DNA of 64,000 bases. Source: a phage. The notes beneath the pieces are model-generated. The model made no database searches, was not told the origin of the DNA, and saw only the letters and a list, made by a program, of their open reading frames with translations. The translations under genes and the position numbers were made by a program. This document shows positions 6,411 to 29,368 of the stretch, piece after piece. Positions within the stretch are counted from its first letter, which is position 1. Each line of letters opens with the position of its first letter. Location: sequence record NC_042307.1; one strand, 5' to 3'.

Positions 6411-6554
6411 TTGGTTTTCCTTTTTATAGTTATCAGGATTTAGGAAATAGTTTACTTTATTCTCAGTCATTTGGCAAATAAAATTTTCTGATAGAAAAGG
6501 CCCGAGTATTTTCATACCCAGGCCTCCTGTGTTGTCAGTCTAGTTTTTGGCCAC

Positions 6555-7777: not shown

Positions 7778-7800
7778 AGGTGTAAAAATTCTGTGGAGAA

Positions 7801-8670
7801 GTGGAATGCCCGAAAAAATTAACTCAAGAAGAAGTAGATAAATGCCTAGCCGAGCGTGGTTTTACTATGGTGGATAAGCCATATCAAAATTCTAGGTATA
7901 GGCATACGTATCAGTGTGAATACGGTCACCAATGGACAGCTAAATTTGACGCTATTAGGAATGGAAAGACCAATTGTCCTACTTGCTCTATTAGTAGCCG
8001 TAAACTAGATATTGATAAAATTAATACTATATTACAGGACAGAGGTATTACATTGTTGAACGGCTATAAAAATAGTGCCGATATAAATACTAAATTTAGG
8101 TGTGTTTGTGGTCATGAGTGGGCTACTACACTTAATAGTATAATTAATAGAGGTAGTGGCTGCCCATCTTGTGCTGCTAATAAACAGAAACTTAGTGTTA
8201 ATACTATAAATGATCGTCTTGCTGCCAGAAATATCAGAATAGTGGGTGAGTATAGTAATGCGAATACTAAGACCGCCTTTCTTTGTGGTGCAGGGCATAG
8301 GTGGGAAGCTACTCCAGGGTCTGTATTAAGGGGGAACGGTTGTCCTTACTGTAGTTATAGAGATTTAGAAAGTACTAGGATATATGTTATGTATAGCCCC
8401 TCACATGGGGTTAAAATAGGTAGGTCTAACAATCCAGAGCGTAGACTTCTACATATTAGATCTAGTAGCCACCTTATTGATTTGGAAATAATTAAAGTAT
8501 TTGAAATTGGGGAATATAGTAGTGCAGTTCGAATAGAAAAATTAGCCCATAACTACTTTAAAGAGCAGAATTGCCAGTACAAAGATTTTGACGGCGCTAC
8601 GGAATTCTTCAATATTGAACCAAAAGTAGCTATAAAGTTTATCGAGGAAATAATCAATGACAGAGAATGA
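7801..8670 (+). CDS. putative homing endonuclease: three tandem zinc-ribbon repeats plus C-terminal GIY-YIG-like/T5orf172-like domain
   Basis: repeats ..GEYSNANTKTAFLCGAGHRWEATPGSVLRGNGCPYCS; C-terminal IYVMYSPSHGVKIGRSNNPERRL; GTG start; paralogous to 60056..60730. Confidence 0.5.
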   Translation: MECPKKLTQEEVDKCLAERGFTMVDKPYQNSRYRHTYQCEYGHQWTAKFDAIRNGKTNCPTCSISSRKLDIDKINTILQDRGITLLNGYKNSADINTKFRCVCGHEWATTLNSIINRGSGCPSCAANKQKLSVNTINDRLAARNIRIVGEYSNANTKTAFLCGAGHRWEATPGSVLRGNGCPYCSYRDLESTRIYVMYSPSHGVKIGRSNNPERRLLHIRSSSHLIDLEIIKVFEIGEYSSAVRIEKLAHNYFKEQNCQYKDFDGATEFFNIEPKVAIKFIEEIINDRE

Positions 8671-13804: not shown

Positions 13805-14257
13805 ATGTCATTCACACAGCAAGAACTTTTAGATAACTTCCGGTATGAAGAGGGTAAGTTATTTAGAACTACAGGAAGAAATGCAGGGAAAGAATGTTGT
13901 GTTTCTACGGGTAACGGATATTATCGTATATCTCTAGGGAATAGGACTATGCTTCGGCATAGAGCAATATTTTTAATGCATCATGGATACTTACCTGATT
14001 TAGTAGACCATGTGAATACTATAAAAGGTGATGATCGTATTGAAAATCTTAGAGAGCAGACAGTATCCGGTAATCTAAGAAATATCAAATATAAGAAAGG
14101 AATGCATGTTTACCCTTCTGGTAGTAAGAACTGGCAAGTGGTATTTACTATTAACCGTAAACGTATAGTTAAAGGAACATATGACAACTATGAGGTTGCA
14201 TGTTCTATGGCCAAGATGTTTAGAGGTCAATTATACGGTAGGGAATCAATCCAGTAA
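13805..14257 (+). CDS. HNH homing endonuclease
   Basis: MSFTQQELLDNFRYEEGKLF..GYYRISLGNRTMLRHRAIFLMHHGYLPDLVDHVN; GGAGGTGAGG upstream of ATG 13805. Confidence 0.7.
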   Translation: MSFTQQELLDNFRYEEGKLFRTTGRNAGKECCVSTGNGYYRISLGNRTMLRHRAIFLMHHGYLPDLVDHVNTIKGDDRIENLREQTVSGNLRNIKYKKGMHVYPSGSKNWQVVFTINRKRIVKGTYDNYEVACSMAKMFRGQLYGRESIQ

Positions 14258-14295: not shown

Positions 14296-14790
14296 ATTCC
14301 CATAAATGAGAGACATTAGTAAAAATTGATTTTGCTAATTTTTCTTGTTTACAATCCGCGATACGGAACAGTTAGGCTGCCCCATTAAGGGTTGTTTTAA
14401 CTATTACTAGTGTTTATATTGCATTAGTTAATCTTCAATTAAGTGATCTGTGTACCCTGAATTCGGAAAGGTAAATCCAAACCGTGCATATTTAGCTCGT
14501 TATATAGGCAGAGTTTTATATGGGGGTGCGAACGAAAAGAGCAGCGAATGGCGGCACGTACAGTAGTCACCTACCAATAGGATAGTGAGGACAAATAGAA
14601 TCGGCTTAGCGGCCAATGACCTAGGTTCTATTCTGTATATGAGCGAAGAGAGCACAGCACTGAGATATGATAACTTATTCATATTGTTTGATGATAATTG
14701 ATGTTTACGTAAATAGTAGTAATAGTTGTTCTATTCTTTCTGAATAGTCCTAAAGAAAAGATTTCGATTAACCAACACAGGAGTATTGTT

Positions 14791-17580
14791 GTGTTTTCTA
14801 TCCTCCAAGGTCACGCCGGATTTTCTCGTGATTTAGCAACAGGTATTTGGCGAGAAATCAAAGCGGAAGATTATACCTTTGCCAAGCGATTCTCGAAAGA
14901 GCATCCAGAAGGTAAACCAGCTTCTATGCCCTTCAAATTTGATGTAATAGAAGAGCACGACCCACAAAGCCTTGCCGAAATGTTACCCCTTATGAGACGT
15001 TTAACGTCTGATCCTCATATCGTTGCGGTACGAGGTCGATGTCTTGCACCAAAAAATAATGTGCGACGTAAGAAAGGTAACTTTAATGTATCTAATCCTA
15101 GTAATATTATTGCTATGGACGTGGATGGTATCCTAGATACCGGTGGGTACGACAAATTTAATCTTGTTGGTATGGCCCGCCACATTATTAAGATGTTGAA
15201 TAGTATTAGTGAGGATATGTTTCCTCTTGATGCAGGCTTTATAGCTCATGCATCGTCTTCGGCTGGGCTAAAACCAGGTATCCGAATGCACTTAATGCTA
15301 GAATCTAACGTCAAGGTAACTCAGGGTCAGCTAAAGTTCTTATTTACATCTATCAACGATAGCAGTAAGCAAAAATTTGGTTTTGATATTGCCGACCTAG
15401 CTTATTATTCATCTGTCCAGCTCCACTATTTTGCCGACCCCTTATTTAGCGATGGTATTGTTGATCCGTTTAAAGCGGAGAGTAAGCCACGTCTGGTGTA
15501 TGTTAAAGGTTCGAAAGTAAATTTGCCCAATAATCTGGTTGACTATGAAACAACTAGAGGGGAGTTTAAGGAAGAGTTTTATTCCTTACTTGATCAAATT
15601 AAAGGCAAAAAGATTGCTTCTGATAAAGTAGAAGAAACCATCAGCGAGTTAGAAGAGGCTGATGATGGAGTGTATTTGCGTATTATCCCCAAACTATATC
15701 ATAGAGCATTAGAGGATGGGGTTGATTTTGCATGGCTAGAACGTGAGATTAAACCAGCTTTATCTGAATATATTGCAACTAAAGATAACAGTCGTAATAT
15801 TCAAGATTACTTTAATAACGGTCGTAAGCAGGCTCTCAAAGCGTTTGTGAATAACTCCAAACGTGAGATTCCATTAAATCTGAAAGGTGTTCCACTTAAG
15901 AAATTAGAAGTGGATTCTCCACCAGAAGTTCCATACCTGAAGATTAACATTGTGCCCCCAAAAGGCCATATAACATTTGTTAAGGCAAGTCTTGGTACTG
16001 GTAAAACTACGGCAGTAACTAAATGGCTGGACGCAGGTGTTCTTCCTGGCAACTTTTTAGCAGTTACAAATACTAGAGCACTAGTGTCTTCAAATGCTAA
16101 GAAATTTAGTGCAGGACAATATGATAAGTCTGTAGATATGCTTAATTTCAAGCGTGGTGCTATTGACCGTATGTCCACAACTATTCACTCTTTGCACAAG
16201 TTTAAGAGTTTTATTGGTCAAATTGATGCAATCTTTATCGATGAATGTGATGCAGTAATGAATGACTTATTATTCGCCCCCGTTGTTAAACAACGTCGTG
16301 AATGTATTCAGGTTCTTCGGGATATTCTTGCAACTGCAAAAATAATTATATTATCTGATGGTGATATTAGTGCAGAAACAATTGAAGCCTATGGTTCTTT
16401 GATTGATTTTGATAAACCAGTAGCATTTTATAATCATCATCGTAAGATGCTGTCAAAAGCTCACGCTTATGAGTTTCCTGATGAATCCAGTATTTGGGTT
16501 GCACTTCAGACTTCTCTAGAAATGGGTGAGAAGTCCATTCTAGTATCTGATTGTGGGCCTGATGAGCTGAATGAGAAGGGTATGGCACTACGTCGTAATA
16601 CTGGTGCGTTAGTTAAGGAAATCCATTCAAACTCTACCTCAGATGTGGATATTCGACGTATTCTGGATTATACAACTAATGAGCTAATTGATCAACAAAT
16701 TGATTGCTTATTATGTAGTCCATCCGTAACGAGTGGCGTTGACTTCAACTATTTCGATAATGTATTTGTTATTACTAGAACCAGTAATCAGGCGCCGAAC
16801 ATGCGTTTCCAAGCAATCAGGCGCGACCGTGGTGCTCAGAACATCTATTATTTTATTGATAAATCCACTAGTGGGTTCTCCGCAGGTTCTGAACAATATA
16901 ATATTGATGAAGGTTGGCTGGAGTTAGCACAGCAATTATACGCACGTCGTAGAGAGCTGGAATCTAGAAACTATACTAGTACCTTACGTTATTATTTGCT
17001 TGATCAGGGCGCAACTATTGATATTTTCAGCGAAAGCTGGGGAACTATTGAAGGTGCTGGTAAAGAATATACAGAAGAGCGAATCAAAGCTATTCTGCAT
17101 TCAACTCCAGATTATTGTGCCCCACGTCATGCAGATGCATATGAAGCTAAACTACTTCTTGTTCGCTATTATCATCTTGAGTCTATTAAAGATGTAACAG
17201 TTGAGCATGTTGAACAATATATCAAAGATAAACCGAATGATCGAGCTGCATTCTTCCATAAGATGCACGAGATGTTCTGGGAAGATATTAAGAAGTGTTC
17301 AAATGTAACCATTAAACCATTCATAGAAGCTCTGAAAGGTAAGAAGAAAGACTTCTTCCTTAAAACAGGTCAGAGTGCTAACCCAAAATATGCTAGAATG
17401 TATCTTGGTATGATGGGTATTGGTAAGGATATGAACACTGAAAATATCGTAGACTGGTACAGAACCTATTGTAAAATCGAGTGTATGCCGATTCCTTTCA
17501 AATTCATGACTGACGAGGAAAAACATATGCATGATGAAGCAATGTCAGAGCTAGGTGCTAGAAATGACAGTGAAGAATAA
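14791..17580 (+). CDS. putative replication initiation / origin-binding protein with P-loop helicase-like domain (929 aa)
   Basis: Walker A SLGTGKTT, Walker B IFIDECD; GTG start with AGGAG upstream; size and position reminiscent of the T5 origin-binding protein gene. Confidence 0.5.
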   Translation: MFSILQGHAGFSRDLATGIWREIKAEDYTFAKRFSKEHPEGKPASMPFKFDVIEEHDPQSLAEMLPLMRRLTSDPHIVAVRGRCLAPKNNVRRKKGNFNVSNPSNIIAMDVDGILDTGGYDKFNLVGMARHIIKMLNSISEDMFPLDAGFIAHASSSAGLKPGIRMHLMLESNVKVTQGQLKFLFTSINDSSKQKFGFDIADLAYYSSVQLHYFADPLFSDGIVDPFKAESKPRLVYVKGSKVNLPNNLVDYETTRGEFKEEFYSLLDQIKGKKIASDKVEETISELEEADDGVYLRIIPKLYHRALEDGVDFAWLEREIKPALSEYIATKDNSRNIQDYFNNGRKQALKAFVNNSKREIPLNLKGVPLKKLEVDSPPEVPYLKINIVPPKGHITFVKASLGTGKTTAVTKWLDAGVLPGNFLAVTNTRALVSSNAKKFSAGQYDKSVDMLNFKRGAIDRMSTTIHSLHKFKSFIGQIDAIFIDECDAVMNDLLFAPVVKQRRECIQVLRDILATAKIIILSDGDISAETIEAYGSLIDFDKPVAFYNHHRKMLSKAHAYEFPDESSIWVALQTSLEMGEKSILVSDCGPDELNEKGMALRRNTGALVKEIHSNSTSDVDIRRILDYTTNELIDQQIDCLLCSPSVTSGVDFNYFDNVFVITRTSNQAPNMRFQAIRRDRGAQNIYYFIDKSTSGFSAGSEQYNIDEGWLELAQQLYARRRELESRNYTSTLRYYLLDQGATIDIFSESWGTIEGAGKEYTEERIKAILHSTPDYCAPRHADAYEAKLLLVRYYHLESIKDVTVEHVEQYIKDKPNDRAAFFHKMHEMFWEDIKKCSNVTIKPFIEALKGKKKDFFLKTGQSANPKYARMYLGMMGIGKDMNTENIVDWYRTYCKIECMPIPFKFMTDEEKHMHDEAMSELGARNDSEE

Positions 17581-18319: not shown

Positions 18320-19024
18320 ATGGCTGGTTCTCGCAGAAAGAAACATATCCATGAAATCCCGGATGAAGTCTTTAAAAAAGTTATAGAGCATCTGGAAAAC
18401 GGTGGTACTAAGAAAGCAGCATGCGAAATGCTCGGCGTATCATCCAACCCAACTATGGAAAGGATGATAGAAGAGTGGCAAGACCGTCAGATCCAAGTTG
18501 CCGAGATGAAGAAAAAGAAACGTGGTACACTCATTGAAGGTATTGAGTTGGCCAACGTTATTGAACAGTATCTATCTGGTGATTCTTTTGAAGAGATTGC
18601 CGATCGTAATTACCGCTCCGTAGCAATGGTTAAATCTGTTCTGGAACGCTATGGTGCTCTGCTTCGTTTGAATGATATTGTAGATCCATTGAATCCACCA
18701 ATTATTCCTGATGATGCTGTGGCAGAAGAATTTGAGGTTGGAGAACTAGTTTGGGTTCCTGGATACCAGTGTATCGGTGAAATCAAAAAAGCAATGGATA
18801 ATCCTGTTGGTTGTTACCGTGTCTGGCTTCTATCAGAAGGCAAACAACAGAACGTTCATTATATGAATTACGAGCTGGCTTCTGTTAAACATCTGGAAAA
18901 GTTAGGGGTTGACGTAAAATCCCTGGGGTACAAGTGGACTCGTGAAGAAGTTATTACGTTGATTAACGAAGCTGTTAAGGCTGCCTTGAAACTTGATAAA
19001 GAAAAAGGAAAACGCCGTGAGTAG
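18320..19024 (+). CDS. putative DNA-binding early protein with helix-turn-helix-like segments (234 aa)
   Basis: driven by the PN25-like promoter; HTH-like GGTKKAACEMLGVS. Confidence 0.45.
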   Translation: MAGSRRKKHIHEIPDEVFKKVIEHLENGGTKKAACEMLGVSSNPTMERMIEEWQDRQIQVAEMKKKKRGTLIEGIELANVIEQYLSGDSFEEIADRNYRSVAMVKSVLERYGALLRLNDIVDPLNPPIIPDDAVAEEFEVGELVWVPGYQCIGEIKKAMDNPVGCYRVWLLSEGKQQNVHYMNYELASVKHLEKLGVDVKSLGYKWTREEVITLINEAVKAALKLDKEKGKRRE

Positions 19025-19268
19025 ACTAACTGATTTACTTAAAGATGGGGAAGTAAAAACACTATATCGTAGAAGCTGGGATAACGATAATAACGGCTTA
19101 GTGTTACTAACTTTAGATGCTGACTCGGATGTAGCTACTCAGCATACCTGGGTAGCCGGTAACTATCCATATAGCGAGGTTGTTTCATTAACAGTATGCG
19201 AAGCTATTGCAGATGATTGGGAGGTTGCCAGCATCGAGGATATGCTCGCTGTTGGCCTGGTGGAGTAA
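19017..19268 (+). CDS. hypothetical protein
   Basis: GTG 19017 with AAAGGA upstream overlaps the upstream stop; track start is TTG 18993. Confidence 0.35.
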   Translation: MSRLTDLLKDGEVKTLYRRSWDNDNNGLVLLTLDADSDVATQHTWVAGNYPYSEVVSLTVCEAIADDWEVASIEDMLAVGLVE

Positions 19269-21736: not shown

Positions 21737-22516
21737 ATGAAAATCGAAATTCCAACACAATGTCCCTCTTGTGGTTCTAAGCTAGATCTTGTCAACGGAC
21801 AATTATTCTGTCGTAATAAGTCCAACTGTCCAGCGCAATCAAGTAAGTTAATTGAGAACTTCTGTACAAAAATGAAGTTAAAGGGCTTTGGCCCAAAAAC
21901 TATTGAGAAGCTGGAGCTGACGAAGATTTCAGAACTATTTTACCTAACCGAAGAAGATTTGGTTAGAGCCGTGGGTAGCAAGGTTGCCGCTAAGTTAATT
22001 AGCGAATTAAATACTAAAGTTCGCGGAGACATTGACTTTGGTTCAGTTCTCGGTTCTTTAGGAATCACTCTAATTGGAGAGGTTGCAGCAAAGAAATTAT
22101 CCCAAAATTGCACTAGCTTCCATGATGTGAAGGCTGACGGCAAGGCTGGAGAAAATTACAAAGCCTGGCTAAATTCCCCACAAGGCAAGGATGTTATTGA
22201 ACTACCGTGGAAATTTTCAACTGGTATTAAGGGCACTAAAGCTGACGTCATCATTACAGATGAATTAGTTGCCCAGCCAAATGGAATCGCGGTATGTATT
22301 ACCGGATCTTTGCAAGATTTTGCAAATAGAACGGATGCAACAAACTATTTAGAAAGTCTAGGGTATACGGTTAAGAAATCCGTTACCAAAGACGTCAAAT
22401 ACCTAATCTGTGAGGATGAATCGAAGCGTTCCTCCTCATCTTATAAGAAAGCCGAAACGAATGGGATAGAAATCCTGTCGATTAAAGAACTATTGGAGAA
22501 AAATAATAATGTCTAA
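21737..22516 (+). CDS. NAD-dependent DNA ligase, C-terminal polypeptide (zinc finger, HhH, BRCT)
   Basis: CPSCGSKLDLVNGQLFCRNKSNCPAQ zinc finger; ATG 21737 (track start is TTG 21734). Confidence 0.85.
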   Translation: MKIEIPTQCPSCGSKLDLVNGQLFCRNKSNCPAQSSKLIENFCTKMKLKGFGPKTIEKLELTKISELFYLTEEDLVRAVGSKVAAKLISELNTKVRGDIDFGSVLGSLGITLIGEVAAKKLSQNCTSFHDVKADGKAGENYKAWLNSPQGKDVIELPWKFSTGIKGTKADVIITDELVAQPNGIAVCITGSLQDFANRTDATNYLESLGYTVKKSVTKDVKYLICEDESKRSSSSYKKAETNGIEILSIKELLEKNNNV

Positions 22517-25361: not shown

Positions 25362-26248
25362 GTAGAATAACAGAGTTACTTGATCTAAAAGGAATTGAGT
25401 ACAAGGATACAGGCGGGGATATTCTTATATGCTGCCTGAATCCTGAACACGAGGATAAACACCCAAGTTTGCGTATTGATCCTGAAACCGGGATTATGCA
25501 CTGCTTGAGTTGCGGTTTTGGCAAAGGTATACCTAGTATTTATCATTATTTTAATGAGACTCAATATAGACAATCTCCAAGACTATCCCAAGTACGTAAA
25601 AAAATTTCTGAGATTAGAAATGGATCTACGAATCTTGCAATCCCAGAATCTGCTTTTCTTTTTGAAGGTGATTTCCGAGGTATCAGTTCTAAGACCTTAA
25701 AGAAATATTTTGCTTTCCAACACCAAGAGGACTGGGAAGGCAGAATTGTATTCCCAATCACAGATGCTGTTGGACGCAATATCCTATTTTTGGGTCGTTC
25801 TATAAACAGTTCTGCCCCTCCTAAATACTTAGTAAAACCAAAACAAGTTTCACCGCCAATTTTTCCTGTACGATATAATACTCCAGTTCTTATTCTAGTT
25901 GAAGGCATCTTTGATATGCTGAACCTAGAGGATAATGGTATAGACTATGCTTCTTGCTGCTTTGGTACACATCAGTTTACATCTGATAACATTGCTGATA
26001 AGTTCAGTCCTTACATTATTGCTGGAGTAAGAGTAGTTGTTATCTTGCTAGATAATGATGCCTCTGGTAATAAAGCTGCTCAAGCACTAGCGAAGCTAAT
26101 TCGTACAAAAACACGTTTAACACCTGTAGTTGGTAACTTCCTTCTTCCAGAAGGTAAAGACCCAGGTGATTTAAATAAAGAAGAGATCGATATGTTGGCT
26201 CAACGTATTGAAATTTTAGTTGCCGAATCGCTCAAAGATTTGGTATAA
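25358..26248 (+). CDS. DNA primase (DnaG-like)
   Basis: CHC2 zinc finger CCLNPEHEDKHPSLRIDPETGIMHCLSCGFGKG; TOPRIM motifs LVEGIFDMLNL and LDNDASG. Confidence 0.75.
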   Translation: MSRITELLDLKGIEYKDTGGDILICCLNPEHEDKHPSLRIDPETGIMHCLSCGFGKGIPSIYHYFNETQYRQSPRLSQVRKKISEIRNGSTNLAIPESAFLFEGDFRGISSKTLKKYFAFQHQEDWEGRIVFPITDAVGRNILFLGRSINSSAPPKYLVKPKQVSPPIFPVRYNTPVLILVEGIFDMLNLEDNGIDYASCCFGTHQFTSDNIADKFSPYIIAGVRVVVILLDNDASGNKAAQALAKLIRTKTRLTPVVGNFLLPEGKDPGDLNKEEIDMLAQRIEILVAESLKDLV

Positions 26249-26310
26249 TATATTGGTAAGTTAGAGAAGAAACACTGAAGTTATACTTACTTACCAAAAG
26301 GAGACTAAAT

Positions 26311-28878
26311 TTGAAAATTGCAGTAGTTGATAAAGCTCTAAATAACACTCGTTATGATAAACACTTCCAGCTTTATGGTGAGGAAGTTGATGTATTCCAT
26401 ATGTGTAACGAGAAGTTATCTGGTCGTTTGCTGAAAAAGCATATTACAATCGGAACTCCAGATAACCCGTTCGATCCGAACGATTACGATTTTGTTGTGC
26501 TAGTCGGTGCTGAACCTTTCCTGTATTTCGCAGGTAAGAAAGGTATCGGTGATTATACTGGTAAACGTGTAGAGCATGGTGGCTATGCCAACTGGATTGC
26601 AAGTATTAGTCCAGCTCAGCTACACTTTAAACCTGAAATGAAACCAGTTTTCGATGCTACTGTTGAAAGTATTCACGACATTATTAATGGTCGTGAGAAG
26701 ATTGCAAAAGCTGGTGATTATCGTCCTATTACTGATCCAGACGAAGCTGAAGAATACATCAAGATGGTGTATAACATGGTTATCGGACCTATCGCATTCG
26801 ACTCCGAAACCTCAGCTCTGTATGCTCGTGATGGTTATCTTCTTGGTGTTTCTATGTCTCACCAAGAGTATCAGGGTGTCTATATTGACTCTGACAGCAT
26901 CACCGAAGTAGCTGTACATTATCTCCAGAAAATTCTGGATAGTGAAAACCACACTATTGTTTTTCACAACTTGAAGTTTGATATGCACTTTTATAAGTAC
27001 CATCTGGGACTTTCCTTTGAGAAAGCGCATAAAGAGCGTAGACTTCACGATACCATGTTACAACACTATGTTCTCGATGAACGTCGTGGTACTCACGGCT
27101 TGAAATCTCTAGCAATGAAGTATACCGATATGGGTGACTATGACTTCGAACTAGATAAGTTCAAGGATGATTATTGCAAGGCACATAAGATCAAAAAAGA
27201 GGATTTCAGCTATGATCTGATTCCTTTTGATATTATGTGGCCATATGCTGCAAAAGATACCGATGCTACTCTGCGTCTGCATAACTTCTTCTTACCAAAA
27301 ATTGAGAAGAACGAAAAGCTTTGCAGTCTATACTACGAAGTTCTGATGCCTGGTTGTGTATTCCTGCAACGTGTTGAAGATCGTGGTGTACCGATTTCCG
27401 TTGATCGCTTGAAAGAAGCTCAGTATCAGTTGACTCATAATTTGAATAAAGCCCGGGAGAAACTGTACACTTATCCAGAAGTCGTTCAGCTGGAGAAGGA
27501 TCAGAACGAAGCGTTTAACCCGAACTCTGTTAAGCAACTCCGTGTTCTTCTGTTTGATTATGTTGGTTTGACTCCAACTGGTAAACTGACGGATACAGGT
27601 GCAGATTCTACAAATGCAGAAGCTCTGAATGAACTGGCTACTCAGCACCCGATTGCTAAAACTCTGCTAGAGATTCGTAAGCTGACTAAGCTGATTTCTA
27701 CTTATGTTGAGAAGATTCTTCTGAGCATCGATGCAGATGGTTGCATTCGTACAGGTTTCCACGAACACATGACTACTTCTGGTCGTCTGAGTTCTTCTGG
27801 TAAGCTGAACCTGCAACAGTTACCACGTGATGAATCTATTATCAAGGGTTGTGTAGTAGCTCCTCCTGGATATCGTGTAATCGCATGGGACTTAACAACT
27901 GCGGAAGTTTACTATGCTGCTGTTCTATCTGGTGACAGAAATATGCAACAAGTATTTATCAACATGAAGAATGAGCCTGATAAATACCCTGACTTCCACT
28001 CAAACATCGCACACATGGTATTTAAACTGACTTGTGAACCACGTGATGTTAAGAAGCTGTTCCCAGCTCTGCGTCAGGCTGCTAAGGCAATTACCTTCGG
28101 TATTCTGTATGGTTCTGGCCCAGCGAAAGTAGCTCATTCTGTTAACGAAGCTCTTCTGGAACAGGCTGCTAAGACAGGCGAACCGTTTGTTGAATGTACC
28201 GTTGCAGATGCGAAGGACTATATCGAAACTTACTTCGGTCAGTTCCCTCAGCTTAAGCGTTGGATTGATAAGTGCCACGATCAGATCAAGAATCATGGAT
28301 TTATCTATAGTCACTTTGGTCGTAAACGTCGTCTGCATAATATCCATTCCGAAGACCGTGGCGTTCAGGGTGAAGAAATTCGTTCTGGATTTAATGCAAT
28401 CATTCAGTCTGCTTCTTCTGATAGTCTCCTTTTAGGTGCTGTAGATGCAGATAATGAGATCATTTCTCTTGGCTTAGAACAAGAGATGAAGATTGTTATG
28501 TTGGTTCATGACTCCGTAGTTGCTATTGTTCGTGAAGACTTGATTGATCAATACAATGAAATTCTGATTCGTAATATTCAGAAAGACCGTGGTATCAGTA
28601 TTCCTGGCTGTCCGATTGGTATTGATTCAGATTCTGAAGCTGGAGGTTCTCGTGACTATTCTTGTGGTAAGATGAAGAAACAGCACCCATCAATCGCTTG
28701 TATTGATGATGATGAATATACTCGTTACGTTAAAGAAATGTTACTTGACGCAGATTTCGAGTATAAGAAATTAGCTGCAATGGATAAAGAGCATCCAGAC
28801 CACAGCAAGTACAAGGATGATAAGTTTATTGCTGTATGTAAAGATTTGGATAATGTAAGAAGGATTCTCGGTGCTTAA
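26311..28878 (+). CDS. DNA polymerase, family A
   Basis: 855 aa; TTG start with AAAGGAGA upstream; 3'-5' exo and Pol A motifs (RRxhKxxxFGxxYG-like KAITFGILYGSG, MLVHDS). Confidence 0.9.
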   Translation: MKIAVVDKALNNTRYDKHFQLYGEEVDVFHMCNEKLSGRLLKKHITIGTPDNPFDPNDYDFVVLVGAEPFLYFAGKKGIGDYTGKRVEHGGYANWIASISPAQLHFKPEMKPVFDATVESIHDIINGREKIAKAGDYRPITDPDEAEEYIKMVYNMVIGPIAFDSETSALYARDGYLLGVSMSHQEYQGVYIDSDSITEVAVHYLQKILDSENHTIVFHNLKFDMHFYKYHLGLSFEKAHKERRLHDTMLQHYVLDERRGTHGLKSLAMKYTDMGDYDFELDKFKDDYCKAHKIKKEDFSYDLIPFDIMWPYAAKDTDATLRLHNFFLPKIEKNEKLCSLYYEVLMPGCVFLQRVEDRGVPISVDRLKEAQYQLTHNLNKAREKLYTYPEVVQLEKDQNEAFNPNSVKQLRVLLFDYVGLTPTGKLTDTGADSTNAEALNELATQHPIAKTLLEIRKLTKLISTYVEKILLSIDADGCIRTGFHEHMTTSGRLSSSGKLNLQQLPRDESIIKGCVVAPPGYRVIAWDLTTAEVYYAAVLSGDRNMQQVFINMKNEPDKYPDFHSNIAHMVFKLTCEPRDVKKLFPALRQAAKAITFGILYGSGPAKVAHSVNEALLEQAAKTGEPFVECTVADAKDYIETYFGQFPQLKRWIDKCHDQIKNHGFIYSHFGRKRRLHNIHSEDRGVQGEEIRSGFNAIIQSASSDSLLLGAVDADNEIISLGLEQEMKIVMLVHDSVVAIVREDLIDQYNEILIRNIQKDRGISIPGCPIGIDSDSEAGGSRDYSCGKMKKQHPSIACIDDDEYTRYVKEMLLDADFEYKKLAAMDKEHPDHSKYKDDKFIAVCKDLDNVRRILGA

Positions 28879-29368
28879 TTTCAAATTGCCCGTCTATGCG
28901 TTACGGGCGTTTGTATCAATTGAGCAGGAAGGTGATTATTCCATAATTACAACAAGATATAATAAATATGTGTTAGATAACAGGGAGTTGCCTGGCACAT
29001 TCTCTCAACGTAGGTTAGCCTTATTTGAGAAGCGGAAAGAATTACCGTACAAGCTCTATCCTATTAGAGGTAGAATATCAATGTTGTCTCAATTAGTTGG
29101 GTCAAAGCGTAGCCAATTTATAGATTCTGATGGAAATCTTATTAACTGGAAGAAAACTACGTTCTATGATGTTGTCACCGCTAAAGTTTTGCATTCAGCT
29201 AGAATTTATAACGGAAAATACCAATGCTATGTAGCTAAAGTTCCATATCCATTTGTATTATCCTATGTTCCAGCTTATATAAGCTATATTCTGGTAAATA
29301 ATAGCCCTGTTATTTATCAAGTCCATCAAGAGGAGCCTGAAATTCCTAGACTTAGAATAAAATTATGA
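28871..29368 (+). CDS. hypothetical protein (165 aa)
   Basis: GTG start overlapping polymerase stop. Confidence 0.45.
   Translation: MLNFKLPVYALRAFVSIEQEGDYSIITTRYNKYVLDNRELPGTFSQRRLALFEKRKELPYKLYPIRGRISMLSQLVGSKRSQFIDSDGNLINWKKTTFYDVVTAKVLHSARIYNGKYQCYVAKVPYPFVLSYVPAYISYILVNNSPVIYQVHQEEPEIPRLRIKL

Follow-up and report, generated by a model that had tools for sequence, protein, structure and literature searches.

The non-ATG start codons in a stretch of T5-like phage DNA are most probably ordinary bacterial-type non-AUG initiation sites of the early (replication) module, accompanied by one artefact. We analysed 64,000 nucleotides of the phage record NC_042307.1 (the window), which is T5-like (Demerecviridae) and shares 95.9% nucleotide identity with Salmonella phage Shivani. 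A first-pass annotation had listed four such starts, a TTG on the DNA polymerase gene (pol) at 26311 and GTG codons at 14791, 7801 and 28871, and had proposed that weak start codons on replication genes are a deliberate way of limiting translation. Three of the four (26311, 14791 and 28871) are genuine. The pol TTG and the GTG of the origin-binding helicase are known, as both are already in the T5 reference annotation (RefSeq NC_005859). The main value of the analysis lies in annotation: for pol the TTG should be trusted, neither the codon-31 ATG of one T5 record nor the out-of-frame ATG of a 1989 entry.

Start of the DNA polymerase gene

26220..26249, + strand: pol promoter, extended -10 sigma-70, TTGCCG-18-(TG)TATAAT, for the pol transcript
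26297..26304, + strand: pol Shine-Dalgarno sequence (SD) AAAGGAGA, 6-nt spacer to TTG, duplex with the 16S 3' end of -8.7 kcal/mol
26311..26313, + strand: pol TTG initiation codon, first start after the in-frame stop; T5.122 of the T5 RefSeq record starts at the same codon
26311..28878, + strand: DNA polymerase CDS, 855 aa, family A polymerase with 3'-5' exonuclease, orthologue of T5.122
26401..26403, + strand: in-frame ATG at pol codon 31, the start used in GenBank AY587007, rejected here

The gene product is a family A DNA polymerase of the T5 type, with both expected domains (Pfam DNA_pol_A, 7.7e-66; DNA_pol_A_exo1, 1.2e-38) and a lineage-specific N-terminal extension that is conserved in Demerecviridae. 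A PDB sequence search for a T5 pol structure returned none, the nearest entry being Klenow, which aligns to pol only from residue ~159. The CDS has the same length as those of Shivani and T5. T5.122 (D7-D9) shares with it the 855 aa, the TTG, the SD and the position of the upstream promoter, at about 97% amino acid identity, and the SD/spacer haplotype reads AAGGAGACTAAAT in the window and GAGGAGATTAAAT in T5. The promoter annotated in the T5 RefSeq record corresponds to window positions 26201-26275.

The TTG, with AAAGGAGA 6 nt upstream, is exactly as first described. It is present in 29/29 T5-like sequences, and the 51 nt of open frame upstream of it hold no ATG, GTG or TTG. The SD is unpaired in the predicted fold of the leader. 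Within the T5-like sequences the variable sites of codons 2-30 are distributed over the three codon positions as 2/0/13. Other genera retain the N-terminal peptide MKIAVVDK and have ATG precisely at codon 1, and in seven other lineages the alignment of pol N-termini starts at residue 1. The lack of an alternative start, an SD at 5-9 nt and constraint that begins at the codon itself indicate that the TTG is a genuine non-AUG initiation site. We propose that pol is translated from UUG 26311 on the transcript of its own promoter, via a strong, unpaired SD at optimal spacing. A literature search returned no experimentally determined N-terminus of T5 pol and no statement on its TTG start.

Start of the origin-binding helicase gene

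14779..14783, + strand: helicase SD AGGAG, 7-nt spacer to GTG, -6.9 kcal/mol
14791..14793, + strand: helicase GTG initiation codon, GTG in 28/28 T5-like sequences; T5.108 of the T5 RefSeq record starts there
14791..17580, + strand: origin-binding-type helicase CDS, 929 aa, Pfam Herpes_ori_bp 2.9e-07, orthologue of T5.108

This gene is annotated as replication origin binding protein in Shivani, Stubb, Slocum and T5. The T5 orthologue (T5.108, putative replication origin binding protein) has the same GTG and SD and about 99% amino acid identity, with 928 aa compared to 929 aa here. The GTG reported at 14791 is present and genuine, preceded by AGGAG. Among the 28 T5-like sequences the SD is invariant and the spacer variable at one site, as against 36/60 variable upstream sites, and the 78 nt of open frame upstream contain no ATG, GTG or TTG. 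Variable sites in codons 2-45 fall as 12/13/33 on the three codon positions. The N-terminal peptide (M)FSILxGH is conserved across genera, and N-termini align from residue 1 in six other lineages. Taken together, the lack of an alternative start, the SD and the constraint from the codon onwards indicate that GTG 14791 is a genuine non-AUG initiation site, from which the origin-binding helicase would be translated.

We also considered that the TTG and GTG are unused and that both proteins start at the first downstream in-frame ATG, codon 31 of pol (26401) and codon 46 of the helicase (14926). Both ATG codons are present in all T5-like sequences, and one T5 genome record (GenBank AY587007) indeed starts pol at codon 31. 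However, variation in pol codons 2-30 and helicase codons 2-45 is strongly biased to third positions, the N-terminal peptides of both proteins are kept across genera with ATG exactly at codon 1 elsewhere, and the SDs before 26401 (-3.9 kcal/mol) and 14926 (-4.7) are weak. Moreover, several lineages have Leu in place of Met31 and Met46 (for Met31, the Vibrio and marine lineages), and the T5 pol N-terminus has been described as a UDG-like domain (PMC3201878). Internal initiation is therefore extremely improbable; the in-frame ATG that might have been overlooked at pol codon 31 was checked and is not the start. A literature search on the pol and helicase starts found no N-terminal protein sequence or ribosome-profiling data.

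Starts within gene overlaps

28871..28873, + strand: GTG initiation codon of the T5.123 orthologue, inside pol codons Gly854-Ala855; 8-nt overlap GTGCTTAA including the pol stop
28871..29368, + strand: T5.123 orthologue, conserved 165-aa protein between pol and the D10 helicase, no Pfam family
19017..19019, + strand: GTG start of an 83-aa ORF, inside the 3' end of a D2-like gene; genuine, annotated as GTG in Shivani

The gene at 28871 was found in all Demerecviridae lineages examined. The GTG described for it is present and genuine, with an AAGGA SD (28860-28864, 6-nt spacer) inside the end of pol. A G to A change at this start would turn pol Gly854 from GGT into GAT (Asp). As judged from the sequence, the GTG is dictated by the overlap with pol, since an ATG at this site would alter the polymerase. 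The pol/T5.123 pair has the arrangement expected of translationally coupled genes, in that the start overlaps the upstream stop and the SD lies inside the upstream gene, and GUG 28871 would probably act by translational coupling. GUG 19017 inside the end of the D2-like gene may likewise be overlap-set and is probably coupled in the same way. What both would share with known coupling via overlapping stop and start codons is the position of the start, on the pol stop (GTGCTTAA, with AAGGA within the pol end) and on the D2-like end, respectively. In other genera, by contrast, the 28871-type junction uses ATG in different overlaps, for example TAATG in Slocum.

GTG 19017 is conserved in all T5-like loci. 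The TTG upstream of it at 18993 was rejected as a further non-ATG start, being TAG or TCG in some relatives. Three other candidates were likewise rejected in favour of a conserved ATG: GTG 17555 (ATG at 17564), TTG 21734 (ATG at 21737) and TTG 13751 (ATG at 13805). The over-extended GTG start at 17555 is carried by a curated relative and should be flagged.

The apparent GTG start at 7801

7801..7803, + strand: GTG, apparent start of ORF 7801-8670; GGAG at 7795-7798 ends 2 nt before it, and relatives start at an ATG 5 nt downstream
7806..7811, + strand: ancestral ATG (7806-7808) followed by CCC (7809-7811), which has one extra C compared to all relatives

The GTG reported at 7801 is physically there, but it is only the first start of a mechanically called ORF and a frameshift artefact. 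Relatives that carry the gene read ATGCCGAAAAAA where the window reads ATGCCCGAAAAAA. Because of the extra C, the ATG at 7806 is out of frame in the window, and its frame stops after 11 codons. This base is the only difference from Shivani across about 1 kb and is absent from all 26 full-length database matches. GTG 7801 has neither an SD at functional spacing nor orthologues that start at the same codon. The gene is a sporadic T5orf172/GIY-YIG-type (T5orf172/MUG113 zinc-finger) endonuclease-type gene and does not belong to the replication genes. The first-pass annotation had listed the ORFs at 7801 and 28871 under a heading on replication genes; the former is endonuclease-type and the latter encodes a conserved protein with no assigned function.

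We suggest that a single inserted base lies behind the apparent GUG 7801. It would be a sequencing error or else a frameshift private to this phage, and the gene affected is a mobile one of endonuclease type with ATG-initiated orthologues. Alternatively, the extra C might be real and the gene expressed from GTG 7801, or from ATG 7806 by +1 slippage on CCC-G. GTG 7801 is in frame with the remaining ORF, a perfect TTGACA-17-TATAAT promoter precedes it, and by inspection of the sequence a +1 shift on CCC G would give the exact peptide of the relatives, M-P-K-K-L-T. Against this, GGAG is only 2 nt from the GTG and 0/26 full-length homologous database records have the extra base. In addition, the surrounding 5 kb (99.3% identical) contains just one further 1-nt difference, another homopolymer insertion (TTT to TTTT at 6487), as would be expected from sequencing error. 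We therefore regard expression across a real extra base as improbable, and favour the insertion artefact; positions 7809-7811 deserve a flag for a probable one-base error or frameshift.

Start codons in relatives

Comparison of orthologous start codons, run as a check on the idea of deliberately weak starts, gave ATG at the same codons in other genera, contrary to that idea. At the pol codon, ATG is found in Eos, Klebsiella IME260, Pectobacterium DU_PP_V, Serratia Slocum, Proteus Stubb, Vibrio VPG01 and marine contigs. The origin-binding gene starts with ATG in four lineages (Klebsiella, Pectobacterium, Proteus and Vibrio phages) and with GTG in three. Providencia phages have a second, independent pol TTG at a different codon, three codons upstream. 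No exact ATG variant of the pol or helicase start haplotype was found among about 440 database records.

In a neighbour-joining tree of pol, the ancestral pol start appears to be ATG, and several switches are required on the origin-binding gene; as deep nodes are poorly supported by bootstrap, the switch count is a minimum and does not rest on topology alone. In the curated genomes of Stubb, Slocum and VPG01, which belong to other genera, non-ATG starts fall on different genes of the module, which looks like turnover. Since AUG stands at these codons in sister genera, the choice of start codon would best be regarded as a modest tuning parameter that is evolutionarily labile, rather than as a conserved regulatory device. 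A conserved regulatory weak start would be retained beyond the immediate clade, which was found for neither pol nor the helicase.

Within the Tequintavirus/Epseptimavirus clade the pol TTG and the helicase GTG are fixed throughout. However, 16/29 synonymous sites (about 55%) are also invariant within the T5-like clade, so that the invariance of a single nucleotide has no statistical power, and we rejected it as a sign of selection.

Frequency of non-ATG starts and the limitation of translation

Non-ATG starts show no over-representation in the window, where about 4 of ~66 plausible genes (6%) have them. In E. coli the share is about 17%, with GUG on about 14% and UUG on about 3% of genes, and the efficiency of GUG and UUG initiation is 10-100% of that of AUG (Hecht et al., bioRxiv 10.1101/063800). 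Non-ATG starts occur on 2/13 replication genes compared to 2-3 of about 53 others, and this enrichment is not significant (Fisher p = 0.06-0.25 across alternative gene classifications). Both free-standing non-ATG starts of the window belong to large replication enzymes (post hoc chance about 0.04), which, together with the second pol TTG of the Providencia phages, leaves some scope for selection in favour of weak starts.

The proposal that weak starts limit translation holds in part. Extrapolating from the E. coli measurements, initiation at UUG and GUG is most likely several-fold below that at AUG. A deliberate design specific to replication finds no support, because relatives in other genera use ATG at the same codons, non-ATG starts sit on different genes in other genera, the enrichment is not significant, of the four cases one is an artefact of a frameshift and another is fixed by an overlap, and the pol initiation region is otherwise strong (SD of -8.7 kcal/mol, 6-nt spacer, unpaired). 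The start codons of these replication genes switch from genus to genus, which speaks against a conserved device for limiting expression.

A related explanation is that the pol TTG and helicase GTG are kept by selection for low protein copy number, for example if excess polymerase is harmful. It would account for the invariance of both codons across the whole T5-like clade and for the GTG of the origin-binding gene in three lineages, and it accords with the reduced initiation at GUG and UUG in E. coli. The pol TTG was gained twice, and the second gain, in the Providencia phages, lends mild support to some selection. Yet invariance of one base within the clade is uninformative, ATG stands at the same pol codon in seven other lineages and on the origin-binding gene in four, and enterobacterial-host lineages with an ATG pol also share the pol leader and a similar SD. 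Moreover, the initiation context of pol (SD, spacing, lack of pairing) is close to optimal, the module genes that carry non-ATG starts change from one genus to the next, and the replication-gene enrichment reaches only p = 0.06-0.25. For these reasons we consider selection for low copy number rather unlikely and retain the reading as ordinary, labile initiation sites.

Comparison with known non-AUG starts

With generic bacterial GUG/UUG initiation these sites share the leading SD, the initiator tRNA and the alternation of AUG, GUG and UUG between orthologues, which has also been noted for pcnB (Hecht et al., bioRxiv 10.1101/063800). Nothing mechanistically distinctive separates them from it, and their frequency in the window, about 6%, is below that of the host. 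Expression-limiting or autoregulatory rare start codons, such as the AUU of infC, the UUG of cya and the GUG of lacI in E. coli, likewise place a weak start on a protein needed in small amounts. In infC, however, the mechanism depends on the unusual codon (IF3 discrimination) and the codon is conserved, whereas here sister-genus orthologues use AUG and there is no known regulator.

A conserved stem-loop in the pol mRNA leader

26253..26297, + strand: conserved 5'-leader stem-loop of the pol mRNA, outer stem TTGGTAAGT / ACTTACCAA, between the pol promoter and the SD

The leader of pol carries a stem-loop that is unique within the window and lies directly 5' of the SD. The case for it is comparative, and its folding energy, which is not significant by itself (z = -0.58), was set aside. 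In the alignment 94.8% of cells are paired and three pairs show compensatory change; the stem is kept through compensatory and wobble changes in Eos and in Klebsiella, Serratia and Proteus phages. Only 5/60 leader sites are variable compared to 13/29 synonymous sites (p = 1e-4). An Rfam scan of the whole window matched no family.

In phages T4 and RB69 the DNA polymerase (gene 43) is a translational repressor of its own mRNA, acting through a hairpin beside the SD. The pol leader resembles the gene 43 operator in one respect, a conserved RNA hairpin directly 5' of, and adjoining, the SD of a phage DNA polymerase mRNA. The two differ in that the sequences are unrelated, the polymerases belong to family A and family B, respectively, and the stem of the pol leader is longer, interrupted and placed at the very 5' terminus of the transcript.

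We wondered whether the pol UUG could be part of a gene-specific translational switch, with the stem-loop as a putative operator for a phage protein, possibly the polymerase itself, and the weak start sharpening repression. The strong conservation of the leader relative to synonymous sites, the preserved stem and its unique position would all fit such a switch. The same stem-loop, however, occurs in lineages with ATG and is not tied to TTG, it leaves the SD free, its energy is unexceptional and no Rfam family matches it; the conservation would be accounted for just as well by a hairpin that stabilises the 5' end or by a DNA element close to the promoter. A switch involving the UUG is therefore quite unlikely, and ordinary initiation from the TTG remains our preferred reading. 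There is a similarly small chance that the stem-loop is a previously undescribed candidate cis-regulatory RNA of Demerecviridae polymerase genes, an autogenous or early-protein translational operator whose sensitivity would be heightened by the UUG acquired twice, in T5-like and Providencia phages. The conserved leader stem-loop is the only element here that possibly deserves experimental attention.

The phage and its replication genes

A 3.6-kb query around the start of the DNA polymerase gene (pol) hit 452 phage records, and in 441 of these the match covered 80% or more of the query; Salmonella phage Shivani (Tequintavirus, Demerecviridae) was the closest with 95.9% nucleotide identity. Gene order and gene lengths of the early replication module are those of T5. 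The features are listed below with their Pfam domains; the ORF following pol (28871-29368) had no family in Pfam. L numbers denote loci or records of related phages.

Features of the window
7801-8670: ORF 7801; treble-clef zinc-finger repeats, CapR domain, T5orf172/MUG113 domain
14791-17580: origin-binding ORF; Herpes_ori_bp-type helicase match
14791: GTG start of the origin-binding gene; AGGAG, 7-nt spacer
26220-26249: extended -10 promoter of pol; T5 has an annotated promoter at this position
26253-26297: pol leader stem-loop; begins at the predicted mRNA 5' end, ahead of a free Shine-Dalgarno sequence (SD)
26311-26313: TTG start of pol; SD AAAGGAGA at 26297-26304, 6-nt spacer
26311-28878: pol ORF; family A polymerase and 3'-5' exonuclease domain
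28871: GTG start of the gene after pol; AAGGA, 6-nt spacer

The polymerase starts at TTG throughout the T5-like clade

No other possible pol start lies in the 51 nt of open frame before TTG 26311. An in-frame ATG is present at codon 31 (26401). Judged by conservation, the TTG is the real start, because variable sites in codons 2-30 fall 2/0/13 on the three codon positions, the N-terminal peptide MKIAVVDK is kept in every lineage with ATG exactly on codon 1 elsewhere, the Vibrio and marine lineages have Leu in place of Met31 and the SD ahead of 26401 is weak. The codon bias, the Met31 replacement and the weak SD speak against the codon-31 ATG as the start. A description of the pol N-terminus as a UDG-like domain is given in PMC3201878.

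TTG was present in 29/29 T5-like sequences (27 IMG/VR loci, Shivani and the window), 17 of which are distinct. Synthetic queries of the two main haplotypes with TTG changed to ATG found zero exact matches in ~440 records, with 216 and 221 records, respectively, at one to two mismatches.

Public T5 records disagree on this start: M24354 (1989, L093) begins pol at a +79 ATG that does not share the pol frame of current sequences, AY587007 (GenBank, L094) at the codon-31 ATG, and T5.122 of RefSeq NC_005859 at the TTG. Annotation transferred automatically from the older records would yield a truncated protein.

Start codons of the origin-binding gene and of other genera

The origin-binding gene starts with GTG in 28/28 T5-like sequences, among which its SD is invariant, the 7-nt spacer varies at one site and 36/60 upstream sites are variable. 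Variable sites in codons 2-45 are distributed 12/13/33 over the codon positions, Met46 is Leu in two genera, and RefSeq T5.108 begins at the equivalent GTG. Both the pol TTG and this GTG are thus already known from the T5 reference annotation.

Eos, Klebsiella IME260, Pectobacterium DU_PP_V, Serratia Slocum, Proteus Stubb, Vibrio VPG01 and marine metagenomic contigs all carry ATG at the aligned pol codon; for Providencia PR1 and PSTCR5, a TTG lying three codons further upstream is the sole possible start. On the origin-binding gene, the T5-like, Slocum and Providencia lineages use GTG, and those of Klebsiella, Pectobacterium, Stubb and VPG01 use ATG. Relatives therefore use ATG on these genes at the level of other genera, not within the T5-like clade. 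On a neighbor-joining tree of pol rooted with the Vibrio/marine clade, whose deep nodes are poorly supported, ATG is ancestral on pol and TTG was gained independently twice; for the origin-binding gene the same tree implies about three switches.

The GTG of the gene after pol overlaps pol

GTG 28871 consists of GT from the pol codon GGT (Gly854) and G from GCT (Ala855), and the pol stop is contained in the overlap GTGCTTAA. ATG at this position (G to A) would convert Gly854 to Asp. GTG is retained wherever pol ends ...GA* (T5-like and Klebsiella lineages) and also in L037; where pol ends differently, the lineages have ATG. The start is constrained by the overlap, and the gene is probably coupled to pol translation.

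GTG 7801 is an artefact

GTG 7801 is present, with a GGAG ending just 2 nt upstream. Shivani and the five IMG/VR loci with this gene carry GGAATGCCGAAAAAATTA (slightly altered in L063 immediately before the ATG) and begin it with ATG (M-P-K-K-L-T-Q), 7 nt downstream of GGAG. The window reads GGAATGCCCGAAAAAATTA: its ATG frame stops after 11 codons, and GTG 7801, 5 nt upstream of that ATG, shares by chance the frame of the remaining ORF. An extra C (7809-7811), absent from 26/26 full-length database matches, is the sole difference from Shivani in ~1 kb. We therefore rejected this start, given the private C, the ATG in relatives and the GGAG 2 nt away.

The surrounding 5 kb (99.3% identical) hold one other small indel, a single-base homopolymer insertion at 6487 (TTTT versus TTT in Shivani). 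The ribonucleotide reductase large-subunit ORF has a candidate start on either side of it, at 6515 and 6410, and the insertion alters which of these is in frame. The two insertions suggest homopolymer sequencing errors. By its distribution the 7801 gene is of a sporadic mobile type, because only ~30 of ~450 T5-like records contain it, annotated there as endonuclease or GIY-YIG nuclease.

Do weak start codons limit replication genes?

The first-pass annotation had proposed that non-ATG codons, reported at 26311, 14791, 28871 and 7801, may deliberately limit translation of replication genes. The first three starts are genuine and the fourth is not. ATG in relatives, which that annotation had named as a refutation of its idea, holds for other genera and not inside the T5-like clade. 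Together with 19017 the three genuine starts make up the real non-ATG starts of the window (4 of ~66 plausible genes, ~6%); the figure for E. coli is ~17% (Hecht et al., bioRxiv 10.1101/063800). Enrichment on replication genes gave p = 0.06-0.25. Curated genomes from other genera have their non-ATG starts on different genes of the module: Slocum on ligA, D12, D13 and the co-activator, VPG01 on D10 and the T5.123 homologue, and Stubb on the co-activator only. Output of pol and helicase would probably be somewhat below the AUG level, because initiator tRNA reads UUG and GUG with 10-100% of the efficiency seen for AUG (Hecht et al., bioRxiv 10.1101/063800). Apart from its start codon, the pol initiation region is strong, and it is unpaired. 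The adaptive reading is weakly supported at best.

GTG 17555, annotated in Shivani (L001 11486), was discarded: relatives have GGG, GAG or CGG there and nearly all keep ATG 17564, so the curated start of this small gene probably lies 9 nt too far upstream. The 83-aa ORF at 19017-19268 has a conserved GTG within the 3' end of a D2-like gene and a sub-threshold Pfam match to Tad2-like (Thoeris anti-defence 2; E = 0.009, 16.9 bits versus a cut-off of 25).

A conserved stem-loop in the pol leader

The pol leader is variable at 5/60 sites versus 13/29 synonymous sites in pol (p = 1e-4). Its stem is preserved in Eos by G-C to U-A and U-A to C-G changes; Klebsiella, Slocum and L015 keep it with U-G wobbles, and Stubb with another stem sequence. 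Pairing holds in 94.8% of cells versus 28-53% with slid partners, and the loop sequence is conserved too. The structure also precedes pol in L025, L036, L090, L091 and L097, occurs once in the window and matched no Rfam family. It accompanies ATG as well as TTG starts and is therefore not tied to TTG. It could serve as a 5' stabiliser or as a gene-specific operator.

Pol is interrupted in several relatives: matches in L035, L036, L039 and L045 are ~1 kb longer than 2.6 kb, the Providencia PR1 ORF ends at 605 aa with a match spanning 3.6 kb, and Salmonella phage SB10 (database matches H15/H16) has two annotated polymerase CDS. Insertion of introns, inteins or homing endonucleases may account for this. 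In Vibrio phage VPG01 (L092, ~15917-15990), the leader past TATAAT carries a different, much stronger hairpin, GAGGUAAUUC...GGAUUACCUC, and next to it a downstream U-run, which together look like a terminator or attenuator between promoter and pol.
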